Source: Thermodesulfobacteriota bacterium
Lineage (GTDB): Bacteria; Desulfobacterota_D; UBA1144; Nemesobacterales; Mycalebacteriaceae
Length of the DNA stretch: 64,000 bases
Assembly: GCA_965206175.1 (NCBI GenBank)
Contig: CBDBJA010000004.1
Location: 82,414-146,413, forward strand
Direction: 5' to 3'
In this document: positions 1,682 to 62,792 of the stretch, piece after piece
Layout: each line of letters starts with the position of its first letter
Numbering within the stretch: position 1 is the stretch's first letter
Program-made: the position numbers and the translations under genes
The notes under the pieces: model-generated
The model's database searches: none
The model's input: only the letters and a program-made list of their open reading frames with translations
Told to the model about the DNA's origin: nothing

Positions 1682-3037
1682 TGACGAGCAGGGTTGTTGT
1701 TTTTGGAATAAGCCATAAAACCTCGCCGATTGAGGAGCGGGAAAGGATTTCTTTCGGCGGCGAATCTAAGACCGCCGAAGCTCTCCGCGCCCTTGCGTTA
1801 AAGCCGTCATTGAGCGAATGCGTAATACTTTCCACATGCAACAGGGTTGAGATATACGCGGTTTGCCAAAACGGTGAGCAGTGTTTTGACGACATATCAA
1901 GTTTTCTCCGCGAGTTCAACGGACAGATAGGGCGGGATTTTATTGAGGAGAAATTCTACTTCCTTGAAGGGTTTGACGCGATATGCCACATCTACGGAGT
2001 GGCGGCGGGAATGGACTCAATGGTCATCGGAGAGCCGCAAATTCTCGGACAGTTGAAACGCGCATACGAAACCGCGCTTGAAGCCCGGACGGTCGGAACC
2101 GCTCTTAATAAACTGTTTCAGAACGCTTTTTCCACGATAAAAAGGATAAAAAACGAAACAGGCATCGGCTCCCATACGGTTTCCGTCAGTTCGGTTGCGG
2201 TCAATCTTGCAAGAAACATCTTCGGCGAAATTGAGAAATGCTCCGTGATGGTCATAGGAACCGGAGAGGCGGCGGCGGAAGCGGCGGCTCAACTTGCCAA
2301 AAAGGGGAGCGGGAGAGATAAGAATCGCGGGCAGGAATGAAAAAGAAACGGCAAAACTCGCGTCTTCACTTGGCGGAAGCACAGTGAGGATTGGCGAGAC
2401 GGGGTTGTGGCTGAGAAAGACCGACATAGTGATTTCCGCAACCGGCTCCTCAAACTACATACTGAAGCCAAGCGATGTGCGCGATGCTGTGAAGCTGAGA
2501 AAAAACAAGCCAATCTCCCTTATTGATATAGCGTTCCCAAGAGACATAGACCCGAAAGTACGGGAAATTGAAAATGTGTTTCTCTACGATATGGATGACT
2601 TACAGAACATAGTTGATAGAAATCTTGACAAGTTGCGAAAGAGTCTTGACGAAGCAAAGGAGATTATAAAAGTCCGCGCCGAACAGTTTGTCCGCTGGCA
2701 GGATGGGCTCAAGGCGTTTTCCGCAATTGTTGAGCTCAGAAAGCAGACGGAGGAGATGGTCGGGGAAGAAATCCTGAAAACGATTGCAAAACTTGATTCC
2801 CTTGACCGGACGGGCGGTTGCGGTAAATCTGAAAGGGACGAGGCGCTCTGGTCTCTTTCTCGCAGAATAACGGGGAAATTTCTGCACAAACCCGTTACCG
2901 GACTGAAGAGAGAGGCGGCAAACTCTCCTTTGGAACGGGGCGCTTATGTGGAAGCGGTAAGAAATATTTTTGAACTGTCAGGAGAAAGTCGGGAAGAGTC
3001 TCCGGAAGATGAAAATCAGAATCGGAAGCAGGGGTAG
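1681..3037 (+). CDS. hemA: glutamyl-tRNA reductase, split by an apparent 1-nt insertion (fragments 1681..2340 and 2294..3037)
   Basis: The N-terminal fragment has VVFGISHKTSPIEERE and STCNRVEIY. The C-terminal fragment continues with AGEIRIAGRNEKETAKLA...ISATGS...LIDIAFPRDID. Deleting one base in the A5G4 run at 2299-2307 gives QLAKKGAGEIRIAGRN in one frame. The ATG overlaps the folE stop (TAATG). Confidence 0.85.
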
Positions 3038-3909
3038 TTCGCTCGCCGGAGTTCAAGCCGCCGGAGTGGGCAAGCTTCTGGCGGAAAAAATTCCCGAACT
3101 GAAAGCGGAGTTTGTGTTTATCAAAACTTCGGGGGACAGGGGGAACATGCCGATTTCAGATTCGGGAGGAAAGGGCGTTTTTGTCAAAGAAATAGAAGAG
3201 GCGCTTCTTAAAGGCGCGATTGACATCGCGGTTCACAGCATGAAAGACCTTCCCTCGGTTTTGCCGGACGGGTTGATTATAGGAGCGGTTCCGCAAAGGG
3301 AAGACCCGTCGGACTGCGTTATTTTCCCCGGCGGCGCGGACTGTTTTGAATCCCTCGGAAAAGGGGCGAAAATCGGGACGGGAAGTTTGAGAAGGGCAAG
3401 CCAGATTCTGGACATGCGCCCGGATGTTTCGGTTGAGCCGGTGCGCGGCAATGTGGAGACGAGAATTGCAAAGATGGATTCGGGAGAGTTTGACGCGCTT
3501 GTGCTTGCGACCGCAGCGCTCAACAGACTTGAACTGAAAAACAGAATAGGCCACAAGTTCAACCCGATGTCTTTTGTTCCCGCTCCGGGGCAGGGCGCTC
3601 TTGCGATTGAGTGCAGGGACGGAGACACGGAAATTGTTGAAATTGCAAAAACAATTGAATGCGCACAGTCGCGCCTGTGCGCTGAGGTTGAGAGGTCGTT
3701 TCTCCGAAAACTGGGCGGAGACTGCCAAATTCCGGCGGGATGTTATGCGAAAAAAAAACGGAGACAAAATAGAAGCGGTCGCAGTCATGGCATCGCCTGA
3801 CGGAGCGGAAATTTACAGGGAGAAAATTGAAGGTTCTGAAAAAGACGGAGCGGAAACGGGCGAAAGGATAGCCGAAAAAATTATGAAGCGGCAAAGCGCC
3901 GGGCATTGA
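3009..3909 (+). CDS. hemC: porphobilinogen deaminase (hydroxymethylbilane synthase), split by an apparent 1-nt insertion
   Basis: MKIRIGSRGSSLA...TSGD...GKGVFVKEIEEALL...AVHSMKDLP. The frame breaks at the A9 run (3750-3758). Removing one A joins ...GCYAKK to NGDKIEAVAVMASPDGAEIYREK... (frame of ORF 3574..3909). Confidence 0.85.
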
Positions 3910-6193: not shown

Positions 6194-7148
6194 CGGTCAT
6201 TCTCACGAGCGTTTCATAACCGTTTGAACGCGATGTTTTAAGGGCTCTGTCCGTATCGGCGAAATTTTTCATAATACGCGCGGCATCGCTCCGCGCAAAA
6301 TTGCGGGACTGCTTCCACATAAAATGAGCCGCGCCGGGTTTGATTTTCAGTTCTTTTGCTATCAGTTTTTTCTGCTGTTCGGGGGAAATCCCCGGGGATT
6401 TTGACCTTACAGCCGCCGCTCTGAGGACATTTCGTATCCTTGAGGAAACGGCGGAAAGTATGAACAGCGGTTCAATCTGATTCTGCGCGGCAATCTCGCC
6501 GAGTATGGCAAGCGTTTCGGTTTTTTTCCTGTCCGCTATGGCGTTTGTCAATTCAAAAATGTCCCTTGATTTGCGGCGGTCAAACATGCCGGAGATGTCG
6601 TTTTGACTTATGACGGTTCCGGGACCGTGAGTTTCGGCGAGTTTGGCGAGTTCGCTTCTTATAACGCTCAGGTCTTCTCCGATAAGGTCGCAAAGGTAAG
6701 TTGAGGCGGCGTGGCGCATAACAATGCCCAGTTTGTCCGCCTCTTCAATCACTCTTTCATGAATTTTCCTTGAATCTTCCTCAACGCTTTTGACAAAAAT
6801 TCCTTCTCCGGATTTCAGGTCGGGTTTTGAAACATCCGCCGAAACAAGAACAAGGCGCGCATGAGACGCCGGTGAGAGGGCGTATTGTTTGACAAGTTCA
6901 AGCGATTTTTTGTCGACAGTTTCGGCGCGTTTGAGCACGACAACTTTTTTTGAGGAAAACATGGAAAGGTTGGAAGCATTGCTTATGACTTCCGCAATCG
7001 GCGTTTCATCGGCGTAAAAAACCGACACATCCGCCTGATTGCCGTCTCCGAGAAACTGTTTTGATATTTCCGCGACAAACCTGTCGGCGAGAAGCGTCTG
7101 CGCTCCTCTGACAAGACAGACGGGAGAGTTGACGGCTTCGGATTTCAA
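6171..7148 (-). CDS. holA: DNA polymerase III subunit delta
   Basis: N-terminal pattern VCLVRG...LLADRF...VSVFYADE...[17 protein letters not shown] fits HolA. The TTG start overlaps the ndk stop (TTGA). Confidence 0.7.
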
Positions 7149-8420: not shown

Positions 8421-9693
8421 ATGGTGGAAAACAACCCCTCAACCCTTTCCATTATGGCGGAAATCGCCTCCGAAGCAAAAGAGGCGGCGACCGTTTTGTC
8501 CGTCCTTGATTCTTCAACAAAAAACAAAGCGTTGAAAAAAAATTGCCACGGAACTGATAAAAAGACGGGAAGACATATTCAAGGAGAACCGCATCGACAT
8601 AGCCGAAGCGGAAAAGAAAAAAACGCCGCCCGCTTTTATTGACCGGCTTGTTTTTGACCGCAAGGCGGTGGAAAAGATGTCTCAGGGCATCGCCGAGGTT
8701 GCGGAACTTGAAGACCCTGTGGGAGAAATTGTTCCGTTTGGAAAAAGACCCAACGGACTTGTGGTGGAAAAAATGAGAATCCCCCTCGGCGTGATAGGGA
8801 TAGTTTACGAATCAAGGCCGAATGTTACGGGCGATGCGGCGGCTCTCTGCCTAAAATCCGGCAACGCCGTAATTCTGAGAGGCGGCTCGGAATCCCTGCG
8901 CTCAAATATAGCCATAGGTCGCATTATACGAGACTGCCTGTCGGATTCGGGCGTTCATCCCGGCGCGGTGAATGTGGTTCCCGATGCCGACAGAAAACTG
9001 GTTCTGGAAATGCTCAAACTTGAGGGAAAGATAGACCTGATAATTCCCAGAGGCGGCGAGCGGCTTATCAGGTTTGTTACGGAAAATTCCGCGATACCGG
9101 TTCTGAAGCACTACAAGGGGGTCTGCCATATATTTGTGGACGAATCCGCGAAAACCGACATGGCGGTTGATGTCTGTGTTAACGCCAAGGTTCAGCGTCC
9201 GGGGGTTTGCAATGCGATGGAAACCATGCTTGTTCACAAAAAAATCGCGGCGAAGTTTCTGCCCGCCGTTGTCGGGGAAATGAAGAAAAACGGAGTTCTG
9301 CTCAAAGGGTGTCCGCAAACGCTCTCGTTTGTTTCGGACGCCGAGCCCGCGTCCGAACGGGACTGGGAAACCGAGCATCTGGCGCTCATTCTCAATGTGC
9401 GCGTTGTGAAAGATATTGACGAGGCGGTGGCTCATATAGACAGATACGGCTCAATGCACACGGACGCGATTATCACCGAAAACAAAAACAACGCGGAATA
9501 TTTTCTGCGGCGGGTTGAGTCGTCCGCCGTGATGCACAATGTTTCAACGCGGTTTAACGATGGTTTTGAGTTTGGAATGGGAGCGGAGATTGGGATCAGC
9601 ACCACAAAGATTCACGCTTTCGGACCGATGGGGCTCAGGGAACTGACTTCGGAAAAATTTGTCGTCCGAGGCGGGGGGCAGACAAGAAAATAA
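8421..9693 (+). CDS. proA: gamma-glutamyl phosphate reductase, split by an apparent 1-nt insertion (fragments 8421..8642 and 8668..9693)
   Basis: Removing one A from the A8 run at 8535-8542 gives ...KNKALKKIATELIKRREDIFKENRIDIAEAEKK...AFIDRLVFD...GIAEVAELEDPVGE. Downstream motifs are IGIVYESRPNVT, AVILRGG and CNAMETMLVH. Confidence 0.9.
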
Positions 9694-12115: not shown

Positions 12116-15100
12116 CTATCTGAAATCAAGATTGAACAGAAGGTTGGCTCCCGGAGTAAGCCCGCCCGCGACTCCCTCAAGCACAAAGTGCCTGTTCAGA
12201 TTATACTCCGCGGTGAACCTGTTTTTATAGGAAGTGCTGATGGGAAGAATTTCATTTATGCGTTCATAGGCGAAATAGAGTTTGTCTGTCAAATAGGCTC
12301 CGACTTCAATCTCGGAATCAAATACGCCTCCGCCGCCTTCCCTGTTTACGCTGAAGACATCAACAAAAGTGAACAGATTGCCGTCAAGAACTGAAGAGAC
12401 AAGCTCGTCCGCCGCGTAGCCAAAAACCGTTTCACGCGCAATCCCGCTGTCACGCACTTTTTTGATAACGTCAAAAGCGCGGTTGTTCGTCCCCCTTCCG
12501 CCGTTGGAAAGCAACGCAAGAACTATCTCATCCTCTTCCATTGCCGGAGCGCTTGAAAGATGCAGTGTAAGATCGTCCGATTTTCCGTAAAGATTGGCTT
12601 TGACCGACAGTTCCGGCGTTTCATAAAAAGCGTTGATGTTGACCACCGGACTCAAATGCGCCCTTGAGGAAACGGAAACCGAGCCTTTGTCTATGGCAAA
12701 CTGCTTTCCCAGTATGGTGTATGAACCTCTTATAAGACTCAAATCCCCTTTTATTGCGCTGAAATTGTCGCCCGGTTTTCTTGATATATGAAGAGTGCCC
12801 GCCAAAAGCGAATTGACTTTGTCTATCTTGAATTTCGTGTCCCCGGAAATATGGAGGGGGAAATCCAAATCCGATGTATGAGAGAAAAAACCCGGTTTTT
12901 TACCCGCGGAAAAGCTTCCGTTCTCGCCGCCGTCAACAAAAACCAGCCCTCCGACCGCCACATTGTAATCGCGCTTTATCAATATATTCGCGCCTTTTGT
13001 TTTCAAATCAGACCCTCGGACCCTTATATTCTTTCCCGACCCGTCAATAACAATCTTCCCGTAAAAACCCGAATGCAGATGCTTGATGTGCATAAATATT
13101 CCTTCAAGATTAATTTCGCATGAATAGGAAAAGTCGCCGAGGCTGAAATTTCCCTCTCCGTCCATTCCGCCGAAAGGGTCTATCGCCCGAAAAGAGAAAA
13201 ACGCCTTGTCTTTGTCAAACACCGTTCGCAGGAAATCAACTTCCATCAGTTCCGTCCACGGGTCAACCCTGACCTGGGCGCCGCGAATATCAATCTCACC
13301 GCTAATGTCGGGATTGCCTTCACGGTTGAAAACCGACAGTTCGCCGCTGAAAATGCCGTCAACATCCTGAATTTTTTTTGACAAAAAATTAAGCGGTTTT
13401 ATGCTGAAATCTTTTGCTTTCAGCGTCAAATCGTAATTTGAGATATTTTGCAGAACCGATTTTATTTCGGGTTTTTCCTCCGTTGCGGAAGAAATTCCGC
13501 CTTTGATTTTAAAAAAACTGCCGGATGTCGTTTTGTCAACCGACAGATTGACCGAAAAACGGTCGGAGAAAGCCGGCCGGACTATTGACAAAACCGCTTC
13601 TTCTTCGCCGGATGCGCTCAAATACTTCACATCCACATTGGCAACGGGCCACTCCGCCGGTCCGTCCAGGATGATTTTGCCCGAAACCAAACCGCGATAA
13701 CGGGCGAGAGGAGGGTGGAAATGCTCAAAAAATTCGGTGTTTAAACCTGAGAAACTCGCGGATAAATTCAAGTCGCGCCGTTTCTCCCCGCGCTCGTATA
13801 AACCGGAAAATTGAAGATAAGCGCCTTTGCCTGAAAACACCGAATTTTCAACATCAATTTTTTCCCGTGAAACTTTGACGATGAAATTACGGGAAAGCGA
13901 CAGATTGAAGTCGTTCACCCCGAATTCGGCTTTTTTCACCTCGGCGTATAACTCCCCGTTCTTGCGGCGAATGTCCGCAATTAAACCCAAAAACCTGTCG
14001 TCTCCGAAATCAAGTTCGGCGTAAGAGTCTCCGTCAATGCCGAAATTTATCTCCGGGGCAAGCGTTTCCCCGTATGAAATTTCTTTCAGGGACGATTTGA
14101 CAAAAGCGTCCCTGAAACGGAACTTCTCAACCGGAATTCTGAAATTCACCTCCCCCTTGCCTATGTGTATTCTCTTGCGCAAGGCGGCTGAAAAATCTTT
14201 CAGTTCCAGTTGACCGGACAAGAAAAGCTTTCCGTTTTTCCGTCTTTCCAGCGCGCCGGAGGATTTGAACTCTCCGGACATTCCGTAACTTTTCAAAATC
14301 CGCGTTATCTTTGAAAGATGGAAAACGTTTTTTGATTGAACTTTGTATTTGACTTCAAGCCCGCCGTTCCTCAATGCTCCACCTTCGGCTTTCATTGAGA
14401 ATCCGGAAGATTTAATCAGCAGGTTTCCCGAATTAATTTTGTAGTTTTTGAAGAAAATTTCGAAATCGGATTTTTCCAGTCCCGCGCCGACCTCAAACAG
14501 GTCCAGTTTGTAATCTTCGGAAAGTTTTCCGGAAACCGCAAGCAAACCGTTTTTCTCCGCGATGTTCCCGACAATTTTCAACCCTCCGAGAGGCAGTAAG
14601 TCATCGGCTTTGCCGCCGCCGTAATACCGTCTGAATATGTCGCTTTCAATCTCAAAGCCGTTTTGTCCGCCCAGTTCGGGAATCAGGCTTTTCCCCGGCG
14701 CGGTGTTGACGGTCGCTCGTATCCGCGAGCTCAAACTTCCCAGAGACATGTCGCCCCGAATTGAAAGAACGCCGTCTTTTCCGAAAGCGACCGAGTTGAG
14801 ATTCACTTCGCCCTTCTTGCCAAAAAGGGGGAATTCCGAAAATGAAAACCTCCCCTCCCATACACTGCTCGGATTGTCTTTCGGAACGGAAACACCGAAC
14901 TCCGCGCGAATGTCTCCCCGTGAAGTTTCAAAAACTCCGTTTCCGCCGATGTCGGAAATTTCAAATCCGCCGGAAGTCAGGAGGGTTGAAGTCAGCAAAA
15001 AATTGTTTGCCGACAGATTGCGGGACGGCAGTGAGACATGCCCGCTTTTCAAAGTGATTTTCAACTCATCATCGGTTTTGCCCCGCGCGAAGGAAATCTC

Positions 15101-17049: not shown

Positions 17050-19059
<2,010 letters not shown>

Positions 19060-19063
<4 letters not shown>

Positions 19064-26486: not shown

Positions 26487-26536
26487 GAACAAAGATATAA
26501 CCGCCTTTTGAAATAAACTTGAAAGAGAGGTGTCGG

Positions 26537-27679
26537 ATGAGTAAAAACATCTTGGGATTAAAAGAATTGACGGAAGCGGTTTCAAAAGCCGCGGCAATTC
26601 GCCTGCGGTTGGAATTGGAACCTGTCGCCGGAAAGGGCGAGAAGATTTTCCCTCCAACCTACAAGGGAGGCACATACGCAATTGAGGATAGAGTTGACTC
26701 CAATGGGGAGATTGAAAAATGCGTCACCATAGACTCGGTTCAGTCTCAGGCAAACCGTTTTGAAGAGTGTTTACAAAAAGCGATTGATGAAGGCGCTATT
26801 ACCCTGCCAATAATTGAGATTGACCTTGAGTCATTGAAATCAAAAGATGGCGAGGGCAGAATCACGACATTGACCGCGCCTCATAGATGGGCGGACGCTT
26901 ATTTTATTTACAGTCAAGACGACAAAAAGAAAAAGTTTAGAGATACTGAAATCGGCATAGCATTGTCCGAAGCGTTGCCTAAAAATGCAACCGTCTTATT
27001 TCAATACTGCCCGACTTCACTGCTTTTTGGCGTTTGGGATTCTCATAAAGCAAAGGGGGCAACGGGAACAAAGTTTGAAAGGTGCCTGGCATCGGAAATC
27101 GTCGCATACGGAATAGAAGAAGGAACCCGCTTTGCGAGCAAGGGAGACCCTATGGTGAGCAGCAATGCGGACAAGTTCAAAGGTCAGGAAGCGTCTAAGT
27201 TGGGATTTGGCATGATTCCGCCTACAGACACTCACGGAGGAATTACCTCAAAGACAATCAGGCAGGTTTCTTTAATTTCTCTGACCGGATTGCGAAAACT
27301 GCGCTTTCCTCTCAACGGCAAATCCGACATGGAAACAGATAACGCCGCAAGGACTGTTTTGGCCGCCTTGGGTCTTTTTGCGCTTACCGATTTATTCCAT
27401 CGCGGTTACTCTCTGCGGTCAGGATGTTCCCTGCGTTCATCCGAAAAAGAATTGACTTTTGAAATTGTCAGCAACGGCGGAGAACGTTCTTTTACACTTG
27501 ACAAAGAATCCGCCACATCCTTATTCATGGATGCGGTTGAACAATCTAAAAAAGCAAAATTGCCGTGGGAAACAAAGCCAAAAACTTTCTATGCGACTGA
27601 AGAATTGAAAAAGTGGATTTTAGCAGCCCAGAAACAAGACAAGGAAGGCAAAAACGACAACAAAAAAGAAGGTGACTGA
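26537..27679 (+). CDS. csb1: type I-U/I-G CRISPR-associated Cas7u (Csb1, GSU0053-family-like)
   Basis: The motifs KIFPPTYKGGTYA and IDSVQSQANRFEE match what I remember as Csb1/Cas7u hallmarks. It is the first gene of a coupled four-gene operon next to a CRISPR array. Confidence 0.75.
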   Translation: MSKNILGLKELTEAVSKAAAIRLRLELEPVAGKGEKIFPPTYKGGTYAIEDRVDSNGEIEKCVTIDSVQSQANRFEECLQKAIDEGAITLPIIEIDLESLKSKDGEGRITTLTAPHRWADAYFIYSQDDKKKKFRDTEIGIALSEALPKNATVLFQYCPTSLLFGVWDSHKAKGATGTKFERCLASEIVAYGIEEGTRFASKGDPMVSSNADKFKGQEASKLGFGMIPPTDTHGGITSKTIRQVSLISLTGLRKLRFPLNGKSDMETDNAARTVLAALGLFALTDLFHRGYSLRSGCSLRSSEKELTFEIVSNGGERSFTLDKESATSLFMDAVEQSKKAKLPWETKPKTFYATEELKKWILAAQKQDKEGKNDNKKEGD

Positions 27680-29115
27680 TGCTCATCATTTCAGTCAACT
27701 ACCTTATGGGACGCGCCGTTGCGAGAGACTATTTCAGCAGTCCTTCAACAAGCGAATGGCCTCCCCATCCCTGCCGTCTTTTTTCGGCAATGGTTGCAAG
27801 CTGGGGAAATGCGGACGAAGATGAATCCGAAGCGGATGCCCTAAAATGGCTTGAAAAACAAAATCCTCCCGAAATCACCGCCTGTAAGGTTCAAACCGGA
27901 AAAGCAGTAACTCTTTGTTCAATAAGGTCGGATAAGATAGAAGATAAAAACGAAGAAGGGAGAGTAATATTACAACCCGCCACCGAACATCATTTCCCCC
28001 GTATCGCGCTTTCGGACCCTCAAGTTTTCTTCATCTGGAAAAACGGGGGAAAAGAATTTGACGGACACCGTCCCGCACTTGAAGCCATCGTGCGGAGAAT
28101 ACCTTATCTTGGAACTTCAATGTCTCCCGTAACCGTCTCACTGTGTGATTCTCCGCCCGAAGTTAAAAACCTGATTCACTATGTTCCAAACAAAAACGGC
28201 GATTTATCCCTGAGGGTCGCACACAAGGGGCGTTTTGACAACCTGTGTTCAATATACGAAAAGAGCGGAGGAAAAAGTTCCGATATTCCCGTTTCGCCTC
28301 AAGTTTCCTATACGGACAAAGAACCCGGGGAAACCGTTCCCGATGAAACTCACGACATAATTGTTCTGAAACTGTCTCCCGACAAGGATAAAGATCCGCA
28401 AAGCTGTCTCCCTTATTTACAACACTGTCATAAATCATCGGATGTTTTACACAAAGCGATGATTCAAAAAGCGGAAGAGACGGGAGTTTCCGCCGAAGCA
28501 AAGGAACTTATTTCGGGACACCCTTCCGGCTCGTCGGACAAAACTGAAAAACCGCACATCACGCGTATCCCTCTGGCAAATGTCGGATGGGAACATTCGG
28601 ACGGCAAGGTGTTCGGGTTTGCTTTGCTTTTGCCTCCAGGAACGGAAGCAAGAGTTGTTCGTGAAATCAACAAAGTTGCCGAAGGGCTGGAGTATTTGAC
28701 AGCCGGAGGTTTTGGCGTTTGGAATGTGGAAGTTGTTGACCCCGAAGTAAGTCAGATGTCTTTGAATCCATCGCGTTATTTGAAGTCTTCCAAACTATGG
28801 GCAACAATAACTCCGGTGCAGTTTGACACTCCGCCAAACCGTCCCAACAGCGCGCAAAGTTACAAGATTCTACACCGAAGTTTTGAAAGACAGGGATTGC
28901 CAAGTCCTGTTTTCGGCAATAGCAGACAGTTGCAACATTCTCCAATTCAAGGCGTCCCGCGAAGTCAGGATTTCAAGGTTTTACGAAGAGAAGACGACCG
29001 CAGACCTTGGACTCACCTTACAGTTGAGTTCAAAGAGTCGGTTAAAGGTCCCGTTATTGTCGGCGCGTTACGCTTTTTTGGTTTGGGTCTTATGATGCCC
29101 ATTGATGAAAACTGA
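27679..29115 (+). CDS. csb2: type I-U/I-G CRISPR-associated Cas5u-Cas6 fusion (Csb2, GSU0054-family-like)
   Basis: The N-terminus MLIISVNYLMGRAVA...EWPPHPCRLFSAMVA matches the Csb2 pattern (EWPPxPxRLF). A C-terminal RAMP glycine-rich loop is present (GALRFFGLGLMMP). The start overlaps the csb1 stop (ATGA-type coupling at 27679). Confidence 0.75.
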   Translation: MLIISVNYLMGRAVARDYFSSPSTSEWPPHPCRLFSAMVASWGNADEDESEADALKWLEKQNPPEITACKVQTGKAVTLCSIRSDKIEDKNEEGRVILQPATEHHFPRIALSDPQVFFIWKNGGKEFDGHRPALEAIVRRIPYLGTSMSPVTVSLCDSPPEVKNLIHYVPNKNGDLSLRVAHKGRFDNLCSIYEKSGGKSSDIPVSPQVSYTDKEPGETVPDETHDIIVLKLSPDKDKDPQSCLPYLQHCHKSSDVLHKAMIQKAEETGVSAEAKELISGHPSGSSDKTEKPHITRIPLANVGWEHSDGKVFGFALLLPPGTEARVVREINKVAEGLEYLTAGGFGVWNVEVVDPEVSQMSLNPSRYLKSSKLWATITPVQFDTPPNRPNSAQSYKILHRSFERQGLPSPVFGNSRQLQHSPIQGVPRSQDFKVLRREDDRRPWTHLTVEFKESVKGPVIVGALRFFGLGLMMPIDEN

Positions 29116-31856
29116 TGTCTGAAAGTTATTCATTTACAAATTTCTTTGAGGAACTGCACGGTTGCAAACCTTTTCCTTGGCAAGACCGGCTGGCAAATGA
29201 AATATCTGAAAAGCGAAATATGCCGGACATTCTGAATCTGCCAACGGCTTCGGGCAAAACCGCTTTGATTGACATTTGGCTGTGGTCTCTTTACAAAAAC
29301 ATTTCAAGCGAAAACAAACGGGATATTCCCATACGCCTTTTCTATGTGGTGAACCGCCGTCTCATTGCCGATGCCGCGCACAAAAGGGCGGAACATATCG
29401 CCGCAAAATTGAGAGAATCACGCAACGGAGTTTTAAGAAAAATGGCGGACGGCTTGCAAACTTTTTCCGGTAACGATTCTCCGCTGGAAACCGCAATTTT
29501 ACGCGGCGGTATGGCGCGGGAATCAAACTGGTGCAAATCTCCGGCGCAACCGATGGTTTGCAGCGGAACGGTTGATATGATTGGCTCGCGCCTTCTGTTT
29601 CGCGGCTATGGAATACCGCTCAGGCAGCGTTCCATTGATGCCGGACTGACGGGTTGCGATGCGATGGTGGTTCTTGATGAAGTTCACCTTTCGGAAGCGT
29701 TTGAAAGCACACTGAAAAACATCGCCAATCTACGCGGCGATGAAAGTGAAACAGAAAAATTGCGCGTGGTTCGCATGTCTGCGACAAACCGCAACGGCAA
29801 AGAGAAGGCGTTTGAACTGAACGAATCGGACTTCAAAAACAAAGATATTTTAAGGCGTCATGGAAACCCCAAATCCGTCCGGCTGGAACAGACAAAAAGT
29901 GGAAAGACTTCCGACCTCATTGATAAACTGGCGGAACAGGCGGAACTTGCTTTGAAAAGTTCCGAAATAAAAACCCCCGTTGTCGCGGTGGTTGTAAACA
30001 CGGTTGAAGTTGCGCGGGAAATTCACAATTTGCTAACAAACAAAAAAGACGGCACGGAAGCAGTTCTGCTGACGGGCAGATGCCGACCGTTTGAACGGGA
30101 AGAAATGATTGAGGAATACGGTCAACGCCTGTTCGCGCAGGAAAAACGGGACGGTGAAACGCCCTTGTTTGTTATCGCAACACAGTGCGTTGAAGTGGGG
30201 GCGGACTTTGATTTTGACGCAATGGTTTCGGAGATTGCGCCTCTGGATTCTCTGATTCAGAGATTCGGAAGGTTGAACCGCTTGGGACGGCGAAAAGAAG
30301 CGGAAGGGGTTGTTGTGGCTCCGAAAAGTTTTGGTGAGCGGAAAAAGCAAATTCCATTTTACGGCGATGCGCCGGAAAAGACATGGAAGCGGTTGAAAAG
30401 AATTGCAAAGAAAGACAAAGTGGATTTTTGCGTGTCCGCAATTAAAAAGGAAAATCTTCAAGATGACGATTGTATCGTTCCCCGCAAAAATGCTCCCGTG
30501 ATTGCGCCGGAGTATGTTGATATATGGTCTCGCACAAGTGTCGGGCAGTTTGCCGAATCGGATATTTCTTTGTTTCTTCACGGAGAGTCCGAACCGGCGG
30601 ATGTTCAAGTGGTGTGGCGGGGAGATATACCTGAGGACTTGGACGGTGAAGTTCCGCCGTCAGCACTGCAAGTTCTTTCGGGACTGCCTCCTCAAGCCGG
30701 AGAGTCGGTTTCTCTTCCGGTATGGAAATTCAGAAACTGGATTACGGGGGGAGGTAAAGACGAATCTCTCGCCGATGTTGAAGGAAGCGGCAAGGAAGCG
30801 AAAAGCGGACAGGGAACAAAAGCCGGAAAAATCATCCGTTGGAGAGGATATGAAAAAGATGAAAAAGACAGGGCAAAACTTGTTTCGCCTCAGGAGATAA
30901 AATCGGGCGATGTTGTGGTTCTGTCTTCCGCGCGGGGCGGATGCGATGAGTTTGGCTGGAATCCACAATACGAAAAAAGTGTAAAAGACATTGCAAAGAA
31001 AAGGAGGAAAGCGCGTAAAAATTATCGGGAATACGCTCTCCGTGTTCATCCCAATTGCTGCGACTGCGACAAGTCATGGAAAGATGTAAAAGAGTGGATT
31101 GGAGACGAAGGTCTTCCCGTTTCACGGAAAATTGCCGAAAAACTGTTTGGAATAAAAAATCCTGAAAATTGCAAAGTTGTTCTCTACGGCAAAACATGGG
31201 AAAAAGGTTTTGCTCTTTTGATTCGGGAGAACAAGGAACAAAAACGGAGCAGGGGCGGCAAGTTTGTGTCATTGAAAAAACACTGTGAAGGCGTTGCGGC
31301 AATGGCGGAAGACTTTGCAAAGAAAGCGGGGCTTTCAAAGGAATTTGCCGCCGTTATGAAAACCGCCGGAGAGTGGCATGATGCGGGCAAGGCGGAAAGC
31401 CGGTGGCAGGAATACATAAGAGGCGGGGAAAATTCTGATGAACCCGTTGCAAAATCTCCGCTCCCCGTTGACCCGAAAGCATGGGGAAAGTCCGGTCTGT
31501 CCAAAGGTGAGCGTCATGAGTATTGGTCTTGCTTGCTTGCGGAGAAAAAATTGCCGGAAGAAAACCGCGATTTGATTTTACATCTTATTGCGTCTCATCA
31601 CGGCAACGCCCGTCCTTTTCCAATGCCGCCCGAGGACGGGGGAGAACTGGCAAGAGCATCCGACAAGCAACAAATTGAATTCAACGGCGCGAGCGCAAAA
31701 GTGGCGGACAGCCTTGGTCTTTGGAAACTGGACAGCGGGTTTGCTTCAAGGTTTGCGGAATTAAACAAACAATACGGCTATTGGGGGCTGGCTTATCTGG
31801 AAGCAATTTTCCGGCTTGCGGATTATGAACAGTCGCGCCGTGAGGAAACGGAATGA
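29115..31856 (+). CDS. cas3: CRISPR-associated Cas3 helicase-nuclease with C-terminal HD domain (Cas3u-like)
   Basis: It has SF2 helicase motif I LPTASGKT, motif II LDEVH and the later QRFGRLNR. The C-terminal HD nuclease motifs are EWHDAGK and IASHHG. The start overlaps the csb2 stop. Confidence 0.85.
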   Translation: MSESYSFTNFFEELHGCKPFPWQDRLANEISEKRNMPDILNLPTASGKTALIDIWLWSLYKNISSENKRDIPIRLFYVVNRRLIADAAHKRAEHIAAKLRESRNGVLRKMADGLQTFSGNDSPLETAILRGGMARESNWCKSPAQPMVCSGTVDMIGSRLLFRGYGIPLRQRSIDAGLTGCDAMVVLDEVHLSEAFESTLKNIANLRGDESETEKLRVVRMSATNRNGKEKAFELNESDFKNKDILRRHGNPKSVRLEQTKSGKTSDLIDKLAEQAELALKSSEIKTPVVAVVVNTVEVAREIHNLLTNKKDGTEAVLLTGRCRPFEREEMIEEYGQRLFAQEKRDGETPLFVIATQCVEVGADFDFDAMVSEIAPLDSLIQRFGRLNRLGRRKEAEGVVVAPKSFGERKKQIPFYGDAPEKTWKRLKRIAKKDKVDFCVSAIKKENLQDDDCIVPRKNAPVIAPEYVDIWSRTSVGQFAESDISLFLHGESEPADVQVVWRGDIPEDLDGEVPPSALQVLSGLPPQAGESVSLPVWKFRNWITGGGKDESLADVEGSGKEAKSGQGTKAGKIIRWRGYEKDEKDRAKLVSPQEIKSGDVVVLSSARGGCDEFGWNPQYEKSVKDIAKKRRKARKNYREYALRVHPNCCDCDKSWKDVKEWIGDEGLPVSRKIAEKLFGIKNPENCKVVLYGKTWEKGFALLIRENKEQKRSRGGKFVSLKKHCEGVAAMAEDFAKKAGLSKEFAAVMKTAGEWHDAGKAESRWQEYIRGGENSDEPVAKSPLPVDPKAWGKSGLSKGERHEYWSCLLAEKKLPEENRDLILHLIASHHGNARPFPMPPEDGGELARASDKQQIEFNGASAKVADSLGLWKLDSGFASRFAELNKQYGYWGLAYLEAIFRLADYEQSRREETE

Positions 31857-32755
31857 CAAACGGAACGGAAACAAAATTATTTCCTTTGCCTTATTTTCAC
31901 TATGGCAACTTGCAGGCCTTTATGGCTTTGTGCGGACTGATGAATCTTTTGCATGAAAACAAAAAAGAATGGAAACCTGCCTGTCAATGGAAAGAAACCA
32001 ATGATACAAGGGGTTTTTGTCCCACCATCAGATTGTCCGTTTCTACCACGGAAAAAGAATTTGCAAGCATTGTCTATAAAAATGTGAAAAAAGATTTAAG
32101 AAAAAAATCAGAACATTGGATAGATAATCTTAAAACCGATAACGAAAAAATTATACAGCCATTGGCTTTTTGCTTCCCCGAAGAACCAAAAAAATCACCA
32201 TTCTGGATGGCGGATGTTAAACCAGCGAAAACAGCAAAAGCATCTATGGAAAACTTAACCGAAGACCATATTGGAGATTCTCTTTTCAAGAAGTGGGATT
32301 ATGGTGAAAGGTCAACAAAATTCAAAAGAGCAGGAGATAAAAACAAATATATTCCCGTAGGTAAATTAGGCTATGACCCTATTTACTCTAACCGCACACA
32401 ATCCAAACTTGGCTATAGGCCTAAAGATGATAAGTCTGTTCCAGTTGAAGGTGGGGCAAACGCTCTTGCTGGTTGTGGGTGGGATATGTTTCCGTGTATC
32501 CCTTTAGTAAAGGGAAATGTCAGCGCACCTTGTTATTTTAGAGAGAAAAACGCGAATATGGTTCGCTATCCTCTTTGGAATGTGTGGCTTGATTTTGAAG
32601 AAATAAAGTCATTGTTATGGTCAAACTGGCATGAGTTTTCTAATCCTCAATTAGAGGCAATAGGAATTACGGATATAATTTCTGTGAAAATAGAAAAAAA
32701 AGAAAAGGGGGGTTGGCGTCCTTTGCAAGGACAAATTTTCAAAAAAATTGTTTGA
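31853..32755 (+). CDS. hypothetical CRISPR-associated protein in the Cas8u (Csx17/Csb3) position, 300 aa
   Basis: The ATG overlaps the cas3 stop (ATGA, 31853-31856). The N-terminus LFPLPYFHYGNLQAFMALCGLMNLL loosely recalls the Csx17/Cas8u N-terminal motif. The gene is visibly AT-rich, and its stop is only 34 nt before the first CRISPR repeat. The family assignment is unverified. Confidence 0.5.
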   Translation: MTNGTETKLFPLPYFHYGNLQAFMALCGLMNLLHENKKEWKPACQWKETNDTRGFCPTIRLSVSTTEKEFASIVYKNVKKDLRKKSEHWIDNLKTDNEKIIQPLAFCFPEEPKKSPFWMADVKPAKTAKASMENLTEDHIGDSLFKKWDYGERSTKFKRAGDKNKYIPVGKLGYDPIYSNRTQSKLGYRPKDDKSVPVEGGANALAGCGWDMFPCIPLVKGNVSAPCYFREKNANMVRYPLWNVWLDFEEIKSLLWSNWHEFSNPQLEAIGITDIISVKIEKKEKGGWRPLQGQIFKKIV

Positions 32756-32789
32756 ATTGTTAGTGAACTCAACAGGTTGAAAACGATTT

Positions 32790-34145
32790 GTTTTGCCACA
32801 CTTGGTTTTGTGGTCTAATTGAAACTCCCGCAGTCGCGGTTGCCGCGATTTTCGGGTTTTGCCACACTTGGTTTTGTGGTCTAATTGAAACGCCGGCGAC
32901 GCGAACCAAACGACACCTCTGGTTTTGCCACACTTGGTTTTGTGGTCTAATTGAAACAATGGAAGCGCCGCGAGCGGATCTTCCGAAGTTTTGCCACACT
33001 TGGTTTTGTGGTCTAATTGAAACGGCACAGGGCGCACCACCGTGCACGATGCAGTTTTGCCACACTTGGTTTTGTGGTCTAATTGAAACGCAACGCCGGT
33101 CGGAGCCGCGCCGTATGTGGTTTTGCCACACTTGGTTTTGTGGTCTAATTGAAACCCGCGAATTGCAAACCGCATGGAGCCAAACGTTTTGCCACACTTG
33201 GTTTTGTGGTCTAATTGAAACGGCACGGTTGAGAATGGCGTAAACGCGCGAGTTTTGCCACACTTGGTTTTGTGGTCTAATTGAAACAGCGTCGAGGCGG
33301 CGTCTGTTGATTTTGTCGTTTTGCCACACTTGGTTTTGTGGTCTAATTGAAACATGGCAGAGAACGGGCTGTTCTCAAATTGTGTTTTGCCACACTTGGT
33401 TTTGTGGTCTAATTGAAACTTGAGTTGTTCGGACGCCCCATTCGCTACCGTTTTGCCACACTTGGTTTTGTGGTCTAATTGAAACGCGGACAAAAAGGAA
33501 AAGACACGAGCGAAAGTTTTGCCACACTTGGTTTTGTGGTCTAATTGAAACCGAATCCGGTGACGGAAAGAATCGGAGCGGGTTTTGCCACACTTGGTTT
33601 TGTGGTCTAATTGAAACTTGAAGGAACGCTTGCGGTTAAACCGCAAGGTTTTGCCACACTTGGTTTTGTGGTCTAATTGAAACGGGGCAAGCGTAACGGC
33701 AAGTGAGGGGGGAGTTTTGCCACACTTGGTTTTGTGGTCTAATTGAAACTGGATAAAGGCATCACAGACGCCGCGGACGGTTTTGCCACACTTGGTTTTG
33801 TGGTCTAATTGAAACTGGGTTGCTCTCACCTCTTACATCAACGATGTTTTGCCACACTTGGTTTTGTGGTCTAATTGAAACAAGAACTTGATCCGTGATA
33901 TCACTTGGAGTGTTTTGCCACACTTGGTTTTGTGGTCTAATTGAAACCTTATTGCAAGCCCTGCGAACCGTTTTTTAGTTTTGCCACACTTGGTTTTGTG
34001 GTCTAATTGAAACACTATCCAGGTCTTCCCCGCGCCGCTTGCGGTTTTGCCACACTTGGTTTTGTGGTCTAATTGAAACAACCGCAGACGCAATTTCAAC
34101 CGGCACTTCGTTTTGCCACACTTGGTTTTGTGGTCTAATTGAGAA
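32790..34145 (+). CRISPR. CRISPR array: 21 x 36-nt repeats, 20 x 30-nt spacers
   Basis: The repeat GTTTTGCCACACTTGGTTTTGTGGTCTAATTGAAAC contains an internal CCACA/TGTGG hairpin and a 3' ATTGAAAC handle. I hand-indexed an exact 66-nt period from 32790 to 34110. The last repeat (34110-34145) degenerates to ...ATTGAGAA. Orientation is co-directional with the cas genes. Confidence 0.98.
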
Positions 34146-34916: not shown

Positions 34917-35138
34917 ATGGCGGTTCCAAAAAGAAAAACTTCAACTTCCAAATCCCGAAAAAGAAGAACCCACTACAAGGCGGTAGTCCCGCCATCTTCC
35001 GTTTGCCCGGAATGCAACGAGAGGATGTATCCGCACAGGGCTTGCCCGCACTGCGGCTACTACAAGGGAAGAGCTTTTATGAAAGAAGAAGAAACGGAAG
35101 AGATTGAAGAAGAAGAGTCGGAGGCGGCCGCCGAATAG
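34917..35138 (+). CDS. rpmF: 50S ribosomal protein L32 (with acidic C-terminal extension)
   Basis: MAVPKRKTSTSKSRKRRTHYK...CPECNERMYPHRACPHCGYYKG. Confidence 0.95.
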   Translation: MAVPKRKTSTSKSRKRRTHYKAVVPPSSVCPECNERMYPHRACPHCGYYKGRAFMKEEETEEIEEEESEAAAE

Positions 35139-35177
35139 ATGCTGCTTTCGCCTGTTGAGACTTGATGAAAAAGTAAG

Positions 35178-36095
35178 ATGACATCTTTTGTTTTCCCCGG
35201 ACAAGGTTCGCAGTATGTCGGAATGGGAAAAGATCTCCGCGACAACTTTCCCGAATCCAGACTTGTGTTTGAACAGGCAAGCGACGCCATAGGCGAAGAT
35301 ATGAGCGCCCTGTGCTTTGACTCCGACGAGGAAACCCTGAGTTTGACCGCAAACGCGCAGCCCGCCATTCTGACGGTCAGCATAGCGGTTCTGCATGCGT
35401 TCCAAAAAGAAAAAAACCGGAAGCCGGACTTTGTCGCCGGACACAGCCTCGGAGAGTATTCCGCGCTTGTCGCGGCGGGAGCGATTGAGTTTTCCGATGC
35501 GGTGAGAATTGTGAGAAAAAGAGGCGAACTGATGCAGGAAGCGGTTCCGCGGGGAGAAGGGGCGATGGCGGCAATCATGGGTTTGACAAAAAATGAAGTT
35601 GAAAATGTTTGCAAACAATGTTCGGATAACGGACGGCATGTTTCGCCCGCAAACTACAATTCGCCTGAGCAGACAGTCATATCGGGACACACGGACGCGG
35701 TGGAAAAAGCAACACATCTCGCCCTTGAAAGCGGAGCCCGCAGGGCGGTGCCGCTGAAAGTGAGCGCCCCTTTCCACTGCTCTCTTATGAGTCCGGCGGC
35801 TGAAAAACTTGCGGAAACACTGGAACAGATTAAAGTGTCGCCCATTGTGGTTCCGGTTGTTACCAACCTTGAGGCGACTGAAAACACGGAACCGGAAAGA
35901 GTGAAAAAATTGCTGCTTGAACAGATAACAAACCCCGTCAGGTGGTCGGAATCGGTTGAATACATGAACGGCAGAGGGGTCGACAGATTCATTGAGATGG
36001 GTCCCGGAAAAGCGCTTTGCGGACTTGTGAAAAGAACCGTGAAAAATGTGGAAACTGTTAATCTTGAAATGGCGGAGCATTTGCATAAGGTTTAG
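35178..36095 (+). CDS. fabD: malonyl-CoA:ACP transacylase
   Basis: FVFPGQGSQYVGMG and the active site GHSLGEYSALVAAG. Confidence 0.95.
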   Translation: MTSFVFPGQGSQYVGMGKDLRDNFPESRLVFEQASDAIGEDMSALCFDSDEETLSLTANAQPAILTVSIAVLHAFQKEKNRKPDFVAGHSLGEYSALVAAGAIEFSDAVRIVRKRGELMQEAVPRGEGAMAAIMGLTKNEVENVCKQCSDNGRHVSPANYNSPEQTVISGHTDAVEKATHLALESGARRAVPLKVSAPFHCSLMSPAAEKLAETLEQIKVSPIVVPVVTNLEATENTEPERVKKLLLEQITNPVRWSESVEYMNGRGVDRFIEMGPGKALCGLVKRTVKNVETVNLEMAEHLHKV

Positions 36096-41147: not shown

Positions 41148-42017
41148 TTGGTAACTTGGGAAAAAAATAAGCGCACAAAAAGCTTTGAGCTGTATCCGAT
41201 ACCGAATCGGTTTGAAAAACAGGTAAACAAGCCGCTTGTCGCTCTGTTTGTTGTCGCGCTCGTCTGTTTGATCGGGATCGGCGTTGGTGTTGCCGTGCTT
41301 TTTTCCTCCGATGACAACAAAAACAGCCTGACAGATGACGTGTTCATGAGCAGCGCGACTTATGACCAGATAGAAAAAACCATACAAAACGGCGCCGATG
41401 TAAACGCAAGAAACGGTCAGGGTGAAACCCCGCTGATGATTACCGCCCGCCTGAGGGAAGACACAAAAAGTTTTCTTCTTATCATTGAAAGCGGAGGGGA
41501 CGTCAACGCAAGAGACAAAGAAGGCAAAACCCCGCTCATGTTTGCGGCTCAACACAACATGAACACGCGGAATGTTCTAACCCTGATAGAAAAAGGCGCG
41601 GAAGTGAACGCGAGAACTCCGGACGGGTATACGCCCCTTATGTTTGCCGCATGGAACAACAGAAATGAACAGATAACCTCCTTGCTGATAGAGAAGGGAG
41701 CGGATATCAAGGCGGTGGACTTAATCAATGAGACCGCCCTTGTAAAAGCGGCATGGAACAACGATAACCATAAAGTCATTCTTGTTCTTGTTGAAAACGG
41801 AGCGGAAGTGAACAAGGCGGGATTTGACAGGAGAACCCCACTTATAAAAGCGGCATGGAACAACAAAAACCCCGAAGTCGTAGTCGCGCTGCTCAACAGC
41901 GGAGCGGACCCGGGAAGAAAGGACAAAAACGGGAAAAAAGCGATAGATTTTATTATGGAAAACGAAAATCTGAAAGACTCCAAGGCATACTGGGAACTCA
42001 AACAGCTTGACTACTGA
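41148..42017 (+). CDS. membrane-anchored ankyrin-repeat protein
   Basis: An N-terminal TM segment (LVALFVVALVCLIGIGVGVAVLF) is followed by about 6 ANK units (G.TPLM.AA...N...V..L...GA.VNA). The C-terminal module is GKKAIDFIMENENLKDSKAYWELKQL. TTG start. Confidence 0.85.
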   Translation: MVTWEKNKRTKSFELYPIPNRFEKQVNKPLVALFVVALVCLIGIGVGVAVLFSSDDNKNSLTDDVFMSSATYDQIEKTIQNGADVNARNGQGETPLMITARLREDTKSFLLIIESGGDVNARDKEGKTPLMFAAQHNMNTRNVLTLIEKGAEVNARTPDGYTPLMFAAWNNRNEQITSLLIEKGADIKAVDLINETALVKAAWNNDNHKVILVLVENGAEVNKAGFDRRTPLIKAAWNNKNPEVVVALLNSGADPGRKDKNGKKAIDFIMENENLKDSKAYWELKQLDY

Positions 42018-61078: not shown

Positions 61079-61867
61079 ATGACGGAAAATTTCAACGAGT
61101 TTTTTCAAAAAGGGAACAAATGCGCCGGTTCCGAGGACTGGGACGGGGCGGTTGAAAACTACCGCCGCGCGATTGAACTGAAAGGGGACTATCCCGATGT
61201 GTTTTACAACCTCGGAGTTGTTCTCGCAATGAAGGGCAAACTGAGGGACGCGACCGACAGTTACACAAAGGCGATTGAAGTCAAGCCCGACTATGCTCAG
61301 GCGTTTTACAATCGGGGTTCGGTTCTTGTGGACATTGGAGACCACAGTCCGGCGATAGAGGATTTCAACAAGGTGATTGAACTGATGCCCGATTTTTCCG
61401 GCGCTTATGTGAGCAGGGGAACCGCTTACGGGCGGCTTGGCAAACAGGAACTTGCCATAGCGGACTATGGAAAGGCGATTGAGTTGGAACCGAAAAACGG
61501 CGAAGCGTTTTATAATCGGGCGACCACTTATCACAACTTGCTGAGGGATTACAAAAACGCCTTGAAGGATTACGACAAAGCGATTGAGATAAACCCGAAG
61601 GATTTTGAAAGTTACTACAGCAGAGGGCATGTTTATGACAGCATGGGAAACAACACAAAATCGGCGGAGGATTTTAGCAAGGCGTTGGAAATAAATCCCG
61701 ATTTCACAAAAGCCCTGTTCGCGCGGGGGACTGAGTTTCAAAAGTTGGGTGAGTTCAAAAAGGCGAAAGAGGATTTTGAGGCGGTGATAAAAAAAGAACC
61801 GGAGTCTGAACTTGCGGGAACTGCTAATCAGGTTTTGAAAGCGAATGAGAGGAAGTTTGAGGGGTGA
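61079..61867 (+). CDS. tetratricopeptide (TPR) repeat protein
   Basis: Seven or so 34-aa units of the form A..Y.KAIEL.PD...A(F)YNRG. Confidence 0.85.
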   Translation: MTENFNEFFQKGNKCAGSEDWDGAVENYRRAIELKGDYPDVFYNLGVVLAMKGKLRDATDSYTKAIEVKPDYAQAFYNRGSVLVDIGDHSPAIEDFNKVIELMPDFSGAYVSRGTAYGRLGKQELAIADYGKAIELEPKNGEAFYNRATTYHNLLRDYKNALKDYDKAIEINPKDFESYYSRGHVYDSMGNNTKSAEDFSKALEINPDFTKALFARGTEFQKLGEFKKAKEDFEAVIKKEPESELAGTANQVLKANERKFEG

Positions 61868-61871
61868 GGAT

Positions 61872-62792
61872 ATGAGGAAAAGATTACTGATAATTACCCT
61901 GTTTGTTTTCTTTGCTTTTGCGCCTTTTGTGAATGCTCAGAATAGGTTGCTTGACTATGGATTTATGAAAACAGCCACAGTTGCGGATATTGAGAGAGAA
62001 ATTCAAAATGGCGCGGATGTGAATGCAAGGAATGAACTCGGCTTGACGGCTCTGATGTGGGCGGCAAGCAACAACTCTAATCCTGAAGTTATCACGGCTC
62101 TTGTCAAAAATGGCGCAGATGTCAATGCAAGGGCTGAACTCGGCTTGACGGCTCTGATGGCTGCGGCAGTCAACAACTCTAATCCTGAAGTTATCACGGC
62201 TCTTGTCAAAAACGGCGCAGATGTCAATGCAAGGACTGAAGACGGCTGGACAACTCTGATGTATGCGGCAGGCAACAATTCTAATCTTGAAGTTATCACT
62301 TCTCTTGTCAAAAACGGCGCAGATGTCAATGCAAGAAATGAAGACGGCTGGACGGCTCTGATGTTGACGGCAGGCAACAACTCTAATCCTGAAATTATCA
62401 CGGCTCTTGTCAAAAACGGCGCAGATGTGAATACAAGGGTTGAAAAGGGCTTGACGGCTCTGATGGCTGCGGCAACTCTTAATTCTAATCCTGAAGTTAT
62501 CACGGCTCTTGTCAAAAACGGCGCAGATGTGAATGCAAGGACTGAAGACGGCTGGACGGCTCTGATGGCTGCGGCAGGCAACAACTCTAATCCTAAAATT
62601 ATCCTTGCCTTGCTTGAACACGGAGCAAATCCACGCCTTGCCGACAGGGATGGAAAGAATGCATTTGATTATATTAAGGATAATAAAGAGTTAAAGAACT
62701 CAAAGGCATATTGGAAACTGAATGAGTTAAGGTATGCTCCCGCTCCTTCCAAGCCCAAAAGTTTTATGGAAAAAATCAAAGACTTGTTTTAA
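61872..62792 (+). CDS. secreted ankyrin-repeat protein
   Basis: Signal peptide MRKRLLIITLFVFFAFAPFVNA|Q, then six near-identical 34-aa units NAR.E.G.TALM.AA.NNSNPEVITALVKNGADV. The C-terminal module is GKNAFDYIKDNKELKNSKAYWKLNEL. Confidence 0.9.
   Translation: MRKRLLIITLFVFFAFAPFVNAQNRLLDYGFMKTATVADIEREIQNGADVNARNELGLTALMWAASNNSNPEVITALVKNGADVNARAELGLTALMAAAVNNSNPEVITALVKNGADVNARTEDGWTTLMYAAGNNSNLEVITSLVKNGADVNARNEDGWTALMLTAGNNSNPEIITALVKNGADVNTRVEKGLTALMAAATLNSNPEVITALVKNGADVNARTEDGWTALMAAAGNNSNPKIILALLEHGANPRLADRDGKNAFDYIKDNKELKNSKAYWKLNELRYAPAPSKPKSFMEKIKDLF
62022..62633 (+). repeat. intragenic tandem repeat, six units of 102 bp (ankyrin units)
   Basis: Long identical DNA stretches (aactctaatcctgaagttatcacggctcttgtcaaaaa[c/t]ggcgcagatgt[c/g]aatgcaagg) recur at 102-bp spacing. 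Confidence 0.85.

Follow-up and report, generated by a model that had tools for sequence, protein, structure and literature searches.

In Bifidobacterium animalis, the type I-G system (bioRxiv 10.1101/2022.08.19.504415; PMC12915315) consists of a Csb1-Csb2-Csb3 Cascade, with a small Csb3-type Cas8, together with Cas3, and the same four effectors are encoded by the locus analysed here, which occupies positions 26537-34145 of a stretch of bacterial DNA of 64,000 nucleotides (nt) (contig CBDBJA010000004.1; the whole 64-kb stretch is hereafter called the window). Both loci have a 36-nt hairpin repeat, and in both Csb2 keeps its catalytic histidine and Csb1 its H122/R123 pair, but their Cas3g proteins are only about 31-37% identical; unlike the window, the Bifidobacterium locus carries a cas4-cas1 fusion and cas2, and its spacers measure about 35-36 nt as against 30 nt in the window. 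The solved I-G complex of Thioalkalivibrio sulfidiphilus (PDB 8b2x; PMC9638904), in which seven Cas7 subunits assemble on a 72-nt CRISPR RNA (crRNA) and Cas3 is an integral subunit, has homologous Csb2, Cas7 and Cas3 and serves as the mechanistic model, with Csb2 cutting the repeat so that an 8-nt handle is left. It differs from the window in its gene order, its 72-nt crRNA, its seven Cas7 subunits and its linked adaptation genes, and also in Cas8g1, a large protein of 720 amino acids (aa) with a Cas11-like C-terminal domain, whereas the window's Cas8g has 300 aa; the N-terminal part of this Csx17/Cas8g is matched by the profile of the window's Cas8-like family. Cas8g occurs in three size variants (PMC9638904), and the small one is called Csb3 in the Bifidobacterium literature (bioRxiv 10.1101/2022.08.19.504415).

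Loci without adaptation genes have been described as well, and that the spacers of such loci may vary is recognised. The Salinispora variants I-U_csx17 and I-U_Sa, reported in 2014, resemble the window in having I-U/I-G effectors and no cas1, and were flagged as possibly unable to acquire spacers; they differ in Cas8 type and in host phylum, and the report gives average repeat lengths but no short fixed spacer (Wietz et al. 2014, PMC4223832). In Flavobacterium columnare, a VI-B locus without cas1 and cas2 uses the Cas1 of a II-C system, its spacer content varies and new spacers are mostly 30 bp, so that acquisition in trans has been demonstrated experimentally for this other pair of systems, although their effector types differ from those of the window (PMC8092290).

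Taken as a whole, the window locus is probably a chromosomal type I-G interference module in the common Csb1-Csb2-Cas3-Csb3 arrangement, inherited vertically in Dadabacteria, which most likely receives, or once received, its spacers in trans and belongs to a sublineage of three lineages with 30-nt spacers and no linked adaptation genes. All of its elements lie on the + strand. They are cas7g (csb1; 26537-27679), encoding the Cascade backbone subunit of 380 aa; csb2 (27679-29115), encoding a 478-aa Cas5-Cas6 fusion predicted to be the pre-crRNA endoribonuclease; cas3g (29115-31856), 913 aa, with an N-terminal helicase and a C-terminal HD nuclease; the gene of a small Cas8g-type subunit (Csb3 or 'Cas3-extension' family; 31853-32755, 300 aa); a gap or minimal leader of 34 nt from the cas8 stop to repeat 1 (32756-32789, ATTGTTAGTGAACTCAACAGGTTGAAAACGATTT); and an array of 21 36-nt repeats and 20 30-nt spacers (32790-34145), closed by a degenerate terminal repeat (34110-34145). 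An earlier note on this DNA, made by inspection of the letters, had described four co-directional, translationally coupled cas genes with no cas1, cas2 or cas4 nearby, followed directly by a 21-repeat array with 20 uniform spacers and flanked by housekeeping operons, and this description was confirmed throughout. The genes overlap by one base (TGATG) at 27679 and 29115 and by four bases (ATGA) at 31853-31856; the motifs it had quoted (KIFPPTY, DSVQSQANR, EWPPHPCRLF, PTASGKT, DEVH, HDAGK and SHHG) were all found; and its choice of 26537 as the start of cas7g, whose reading frame opens at 26519 or 26537 in the list of open reading frames (ORFs) of the window, is supported by a GAGAGG ribosome-binding site 7-8 nt 5' of that ATG. 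Translations read by eye identified the upstream flank as NfeD/Band_7 and the downstream flank as YceD/L32/FabD/FabG/ACP/FabF, and these identities agree with the Pfam labels that the syntenic genes carry in relatives. Between Band_7 and the array there are four genes only, about 2,070 aa of effector protein in total, and separate cas11, cas5 and cas6 genes are absent.

The subtype was assigned from curated profiles (Pfam, NCBIfam and PADLOC), which bore out the I-U/I-G reading and the Cas7, Csb2 and Cas3 identities of the earlier note. Cas7g matched PF09617 (E 2.5e-51, 174.5 bits, cutoff 25), TIGR02570 (93.6 bits, cutoff 38) and PADLOC Cas7g (E 3.5e-51), and keeps the conserved pair H122-R123 (numbered from the 26519 ORF). 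Csb2 matched TIGR02165 over its full length (234 bits, cutoff 45) and PADLOC Cas56g (E 1e-94), and retains a glycine-rich loop and the conserved C-terminal His446, whose counterparts by position are H503 in T. sulfidiphilus and H520 in B. animalis, both catalytic (PMC9638904; bioRxiv 10.1101/2022.08.19.504415). Cas3g scored 751.7 bits against TIGR02621 (cutoff 400), with the Pfam domains DEAD at residues 21-225, Cas3-like_C_2 at 289-390 and HD at 722-866; its Walker A residues G47-K48-T49, its D188-E189-x-H191 box and the HD residues H723, H755-D756, H801 and H828-H829 are invariant in 13 Cas3g sequences. The 300-aa protein, marked with a query as cas8 before, matched PADLOC Cas8g (PDLC01514, E 2.5e-24), scored 58.4 bits against NCBIfam NF049934, under the cutoff of 65, and had no Pfam match. 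NF049934 is the 'type I-G CRISPR-associated protein, Cas3-extension family', whose short name 'adjac_Cas3_IG' reflects the position of this gene-4 family beside cas3. Since 46/46 aligned gene-4 homologues from other I-G loci match NF049934 and the family profile matches the type I-G large subunit Csx17 (PDB 8b2x_M, E 2.9e-5) within its N-terminal ~360 residues, gene 4 is assigned as a small Cas8g variant. A structural model built from three sequences of the clade reached a mean predicted local distance difference test (pLDDT) score of 50.8, and a Foldseek search of it against the PDB returned nothing below E 0.4, so the Cas8-type assignment rests on the profiles. With three of the four proteins above curated I-G cutoffs and the fourth in an I-G Cas8-like family, the effector genes are, judged by homology, a type I-G interference module that looks intact; the absence of the cas4-cas1 and cas2 module does not exclude membership, because the subtype is defined here by the effector genes. 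A transposon-associated type I system of the CAST kind, which would have Tn7-like tnsA/B/C and tniQ next to it and no Cas3, was also considered and rejected in view of the intact Cas3g, the conserved housekeeping flanks and the absence of any transposase-like ORF recognised by eye in the window.

The gene order had been called unusual, by comparison with a Geobacter-type order, and this did not hold. An alignment of Cas3g yielded at least 80 I-G loci from species-representative genomes, to which loci from protein look-ups were added and all of which were annotated with custom-built profiles; no member of the window's own clade was among the matches listed from the species-representative scan. 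The order cas7g-csb2-cas3g-cas8 was found in 66/86 surveyed loci, most of the others being contigs that end within the locus, and a Geobacter-like order was seen once (L059). A Bifidobacterium contig (L052) reads csb2-cas3-cas8, which agrees with the window order as far as the contig extends. Within the window, six-frame ORFs of at least 50 aa gave no match to I-G Cas4/Cas1 or Cas2 profiles at E <= 10, and the sizeable ORFs outside the locus were all recognisable by eye as housekeeping genes. Of the comparison loci, 33 had 5 kb or more of sequence on each side; in 24 of these cas4/cas1 and cas2 were adjacent, and in the other 9 cas1, cas2 and cas4 were missing. The lack of nearby adaptation genes is therefore a known, recurrent state and only mildly unusual, and the locus falls essentially into a catalogued variant that shares its order and often lacks cas1/2/4, the outcome that the earlier note had named as refuting its reading.

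In the array, the repeat unit is GTTTTGCCACACTTGGTTTTGTGGTCTAATTGAAAC, 36 nt long and present in 21 copies, of which repeats 1-20 are identical and the last has two mismatches (ending in ATTGAGAA); from this degenerate last repeat it follows that the leader end faces the cas genes and that the + strand is the reading strand of the array. The 20 spacers are uniform at exactly 30 nt, and the period is a constant 66.0 nt. When folded, the repeat shows 5 nt, then a 6-bp hairpin (nt 6-25) and then an 11-nt tail ending in ATTGAAAC, a layout as in canonical I-G repeats. Further repeat-like copies were absent from both strands of the window, no promoter or terminator signal above background was present in the 34-nt gap, and the array matched no CRISPR direct-repeat (CRISPR-DR) family of Rfam. 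Type II arrays likewise combine 36-nt repeats with 30-nt spacers, and the repeat of the window starts with GTTTT and ends with AAAC. A type II-like array was rejected on the I-G hairpin-plus-handle layout and on the fact that the repeat tracks I-G genes in three lineages.

The fixed 30-nt spacers set this array apart from those of canonical I-G systems. In 51 canonical I-G arrays, the repeats of 36-37 nt end in ...ATTGAAGC, the periods are 71-75 nt and the spacers are about 35-38 nt with a standard deviation of about 1-2, only 4 of 1,220 units being 67 nt or shorter; I-G spacers have accordingly been described as 'prototypical 36 bp' (PMC12915315). The sole other array in the survey with a 66-nt period and zero variance belongs to L004, in the nearest Cas3g clade. 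In a neighbour-joining tree of 88 Cas3g sequences, the window clade, the clade of L004, L086 and L087, and the union of the two were each recovered in 100/100 bootstraps, and an exhaustive search of 1.84 billion representatives found no intermediate lineage, with scores dropping from 2097 to 555 bits. When the tree was enlarged with the top representatives, P0328 fell inside the sublineage and P0364, P0343 and P0342 just outside it, this enlarged grouping carrying no bootstrap values. The placement of P0328 was used to predict its array geometry beforehand, with the outgroups as contrast, and the prediction passed: the locus of P0328 (L088) has 11 repeats of 36 nt and 10 spacers, all of 30 nt, in an array beginning 29 nt after cas8, whereas the nearest outgroups are canonical, P0364 (L089) with a period of 73-75 nt and P0343 (L090) with spacers of 34-37 nt. 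On this distribution over the tree, the fixed 30-nt spacers are read as a trait derived in a sublineage made up of three lineages. In each of the three, the repeats are 36 nt long and keep the I-G layout of 5 nt, 6-bp hairpin and 11-12-nt tail. No cas1, cas2 or cas4 was present in the flanking sequence covered in the three lineages, which amounted to about 26 kb upstream and 30 kb downstream in the window, 10 kb downstream in its relative L002 and 7 kb upstream in L003, about 7-10 kb on each side in L004, L086 and L087, and 2 kb upstream only in L088.

The sister clade shows how such arrays vary. Three of its strains, from one sample, have Cas3g proteins 83-96% identical and carry the module at the same site, with arrays at 13885-14449 (L004), 14178-14476 (L086) and 13992-14490 (L087) behind a conserved leader of about 115 nt. 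Their 8, 4 and 7 spacers have none in common, and between their repeats a compensatory change in the stem was seen (CCCCGA...TCGGGG versus CCTCGA...TCGAGG). These non-overlapping spacer sets suggest that acquisition has continued in trans, with no linked adaptation genes, and make acquisition supplied in trans a plausible idea for the window locus too. Indirect signs of a live array in the window itself are its identical repeats 1-20, the foreign base composition of its spacers and the absence of any match to them in the window.

The module appears to be an old resident of its chromosome. Its AT-richness, from which horizontal acquisition had been deduced, is real and small: the cas genes have 46.1% guanine plus cytosine (GC) against 49.8% in the rest of the window, about 3.9 standard deviations below windows of the same size, and most of the difference comes from cas8 (37% GC). 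The deduction itself failed. Only three close relatives of the window's Cas3g were found among 5.8 billion proteins, at 58-62% identity, and their loci (L001, L002 and L003) share its gene order and its chromosomal site, and all their reading frames are open. The shared neighbourhood runs LigA-PolX-MBL-ApgM-TPR-NfeD-Band_7, cas module and array, YceD-L32-FabD-FabG-ACP-FabF-aconitase; between the window and the three relatives the flanking proteins are 73-88% identical, thus 12-27% diverged, and the Cas proteins 48-64%. Because the three relatives carry the module at this same site, its arrival was evidently not recent, and the comparison points to old vertical inheritance with cas genes that evolve faster than their surroundings. 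The chromosomal position is fixed in two lineages of the sublineage.

How the module would work is inferred by homology; protein identity, motif integrity, repeat layout, synteny and array geometry are what was observed. With a gap of only 34 nt after cas8, the array probably shares a transcript with the cas operon. The Cas6-like domain of Csb2 would cleave each repeat at the base of the hairpin, releasing a crRNA of about 66 nt in which the guide of 30 nt is preceded by a 5' handle of 8 nt and followed by a 3' hairpin portion of 28 nt. Cas7g would polymerise along the guide, probably in six copies as against seven on the 36-nt guides of the solved complex, and the small Cas8g/Csb3, Csb2 and Cas3g would complete an effector by which matching foreign DNA is degraded. 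New spacers would come from outside this locus and be integrated in trans, most likely by an unlinked Cas1-Cas2 with a strict 30-bp ruler. A wider proposal, put forward tentatively and with some doubt, is that the sublineage formed by the window, L004/L086/L087 and L088 has been permanently separated from Cas4/Cas1-Cas2 and is served by an unlinked, possibly non-I-G integrase, with a strict 30-nt guide, probably one Cas7 subunit fewer, an array 29-34 nt after cas8 in two of the three lineages and a conserved site in at least two.

Several points weigh against a functional module supplied in trans. As an integration site, a 'leader' of 34 nt is very short, and no cas1/cas2 donor for the window locus was seen in the 64 kb covered of a 238-kb contig. 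Protospacers were sought with eight spacers in IMG/VR, every sixth position being left free, and with the whole array in phage and plasmid collections, and none was found, the plasmid collection returning chance matches only; the L004 array likewise had no match in phages. The differing spacers of the sister clade could in principle stem from differential loss. In L002 a single degenerate repeat (GTTTTACCACACTTGGATTTGTGGTCTCATTCCTTC, 6232-6267) without spacers stands between cas8 and yceD beside intact cas genes, being either a collapsed array or an assembler effect, so that arrays may have been lost or have decayed in part of the window clade. It is moreover inferred that Cas7 numbers six subunits, that operon and array are co-transcribed and that the crRNA measures 66 nt. 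Most of these observations, namely the absence of cas1/2/4 from 64 kb, the lone repeat of L002, the tiny leader and the unmatched spacers, would also suit a frozen or decaying remnant that has lost its adaptation genes, keeps its array as a fossil and is drifting towards loss. Such decay is considered unlikely, since the four frames are open and the catalytic residues intact in four genomes that lie 36-52% apart in Cas sequence, which implies purifying selection, while repeats 1-20 are identical and the spacer sets of the sister-clade strains are disjoint behind a conserved leader.

Domestication for a role outside defence, in gene regulation or genome maintenance, would explain the fixed place among housekeeping genes; this position in two lineages and the lack of viral spacer matches agree with it, but the Cas3 nuclease and helicase motifs are intact, the spacers match neither the window nor any fetched locus beyond chance, they are compositionally foreign (57% GC on average against 49% in the host), and spacer content differs between sister-clade strains, so that this role is judged very improbable. 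The earlier note's own view, a recently acquired I-U/I-G-like module of novel architecture, could appeal to the 3.7 GC points by which the cas genes fall under the rest of the window and to the differing order of the Geobacter and T. sulfidiphilus reference loci; with the window order held by the majority of I-G loci, the Bifidobacterium L052 contig included, and the module at one site in three relatives whose housekeeping genes have diverged, it is scarcely tenable. A search of JGI metagenome contigs with strict and loose patterns of the window repeat returned no copy, and no donor locus was obtained that way. Almost no credence is given to an assembly artefact in which a misjoin at 26.4-26.6 kb or 34.1-34.5 kb removed adjacent adaptation genes: the assembly does hold at least one indel, to judge from the apparent frameshift that splits ligA, but independent assemblies of the three relatives show the same joins, with Band_7 next to cas7g in L001 and L003 and YceD following cas8 in L002. 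A type I-G interference module that is inherited vertically and most likely supplied with spacers in trans is therefore preferred.

Some further features were observed in the related loci. One L088 spacer (8983-9012) is a perfect 9-nt tandem repeat, (CCGCGCAAG)x3.3, which is odd for a sequence of viral origin. The gene in the cas8 position of L089 (7602-8858) encodes 418 aa with a helix-hairpin-helix (HHH_5) Pfam match, and no cas1/2/4 lies within the flanks of that locus. In the sister clade, the Cas3g of L086 (10001-13108, P0018) and those of P0009, P0022 and P0023 are about 100 aa longer (1005-1035 versus 916-928 aa), which suggests an insertion within Cas3g. Upstream of the canonical I-G locus of L031 there are two arrays (152-1120 and 2779-3417) whose repeats (GTCGCCGACCCCGGATATCGACCGGAGC) are about 28 nt long and recur every 64 nt, probably belonging to a second CRISPR type of that genome.

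The host is placed in Dadabacteria, near Candidatus Mycalebacterium, to whose DnaK its own is 85-86% identical; DnaK, ACP, FabF and SucC are each the sole member of their 90%-identity cluster. The nearest named relative is sponge-associated. Several ankyrin-repeat proteins, whose tandem units measure 102 nt (34 aa) and which have hydrophobic segments at the N terminus, are encoded at 41148-42017, 61845-62792 and 63303-63854; such proteins are typical of sponge symbionts and fit the placement by DnaK. Beside the array, rpmF (L32) is followed directly by fabD in the window (34917-36095) and in L002 (6877-8026), with no plsX or fabH between them, where these two genes are commonly found in other bacteria. 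On the minus strand at 17050-19063, ligA is split into ORFs at 18593-19063 (the N-terminal 156 aa) and 17050-18582 (510 aa), and the relative L003 has an intact LigA of 670 aa; the split is probably an assembly indel and less likely a pseudogene of an essential gene.

In conclusion, the locus is a type I-G interference module of the ordinary kind, with its genes in the usual order, and not a new CRISPR type; the claim of an unusual architecture does not hold, and the modest new element is a short-spacer sublineage without linked adaptation genes. If functional, the module would offer a naturally occurring case in which to test what determines the length of Cascade in the least-studied type I subtype, an opportunity to learn how type I loci that lack adaptation genes renew their arrays, and a compact Cas3-based effector with a naturally shorter 30-nt guide, of possible interest for genome editing. 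The locus also puts CRISPR immunity on record as a conserved trait of the chromosome in a lineage of Dadabacteria about which little is known.

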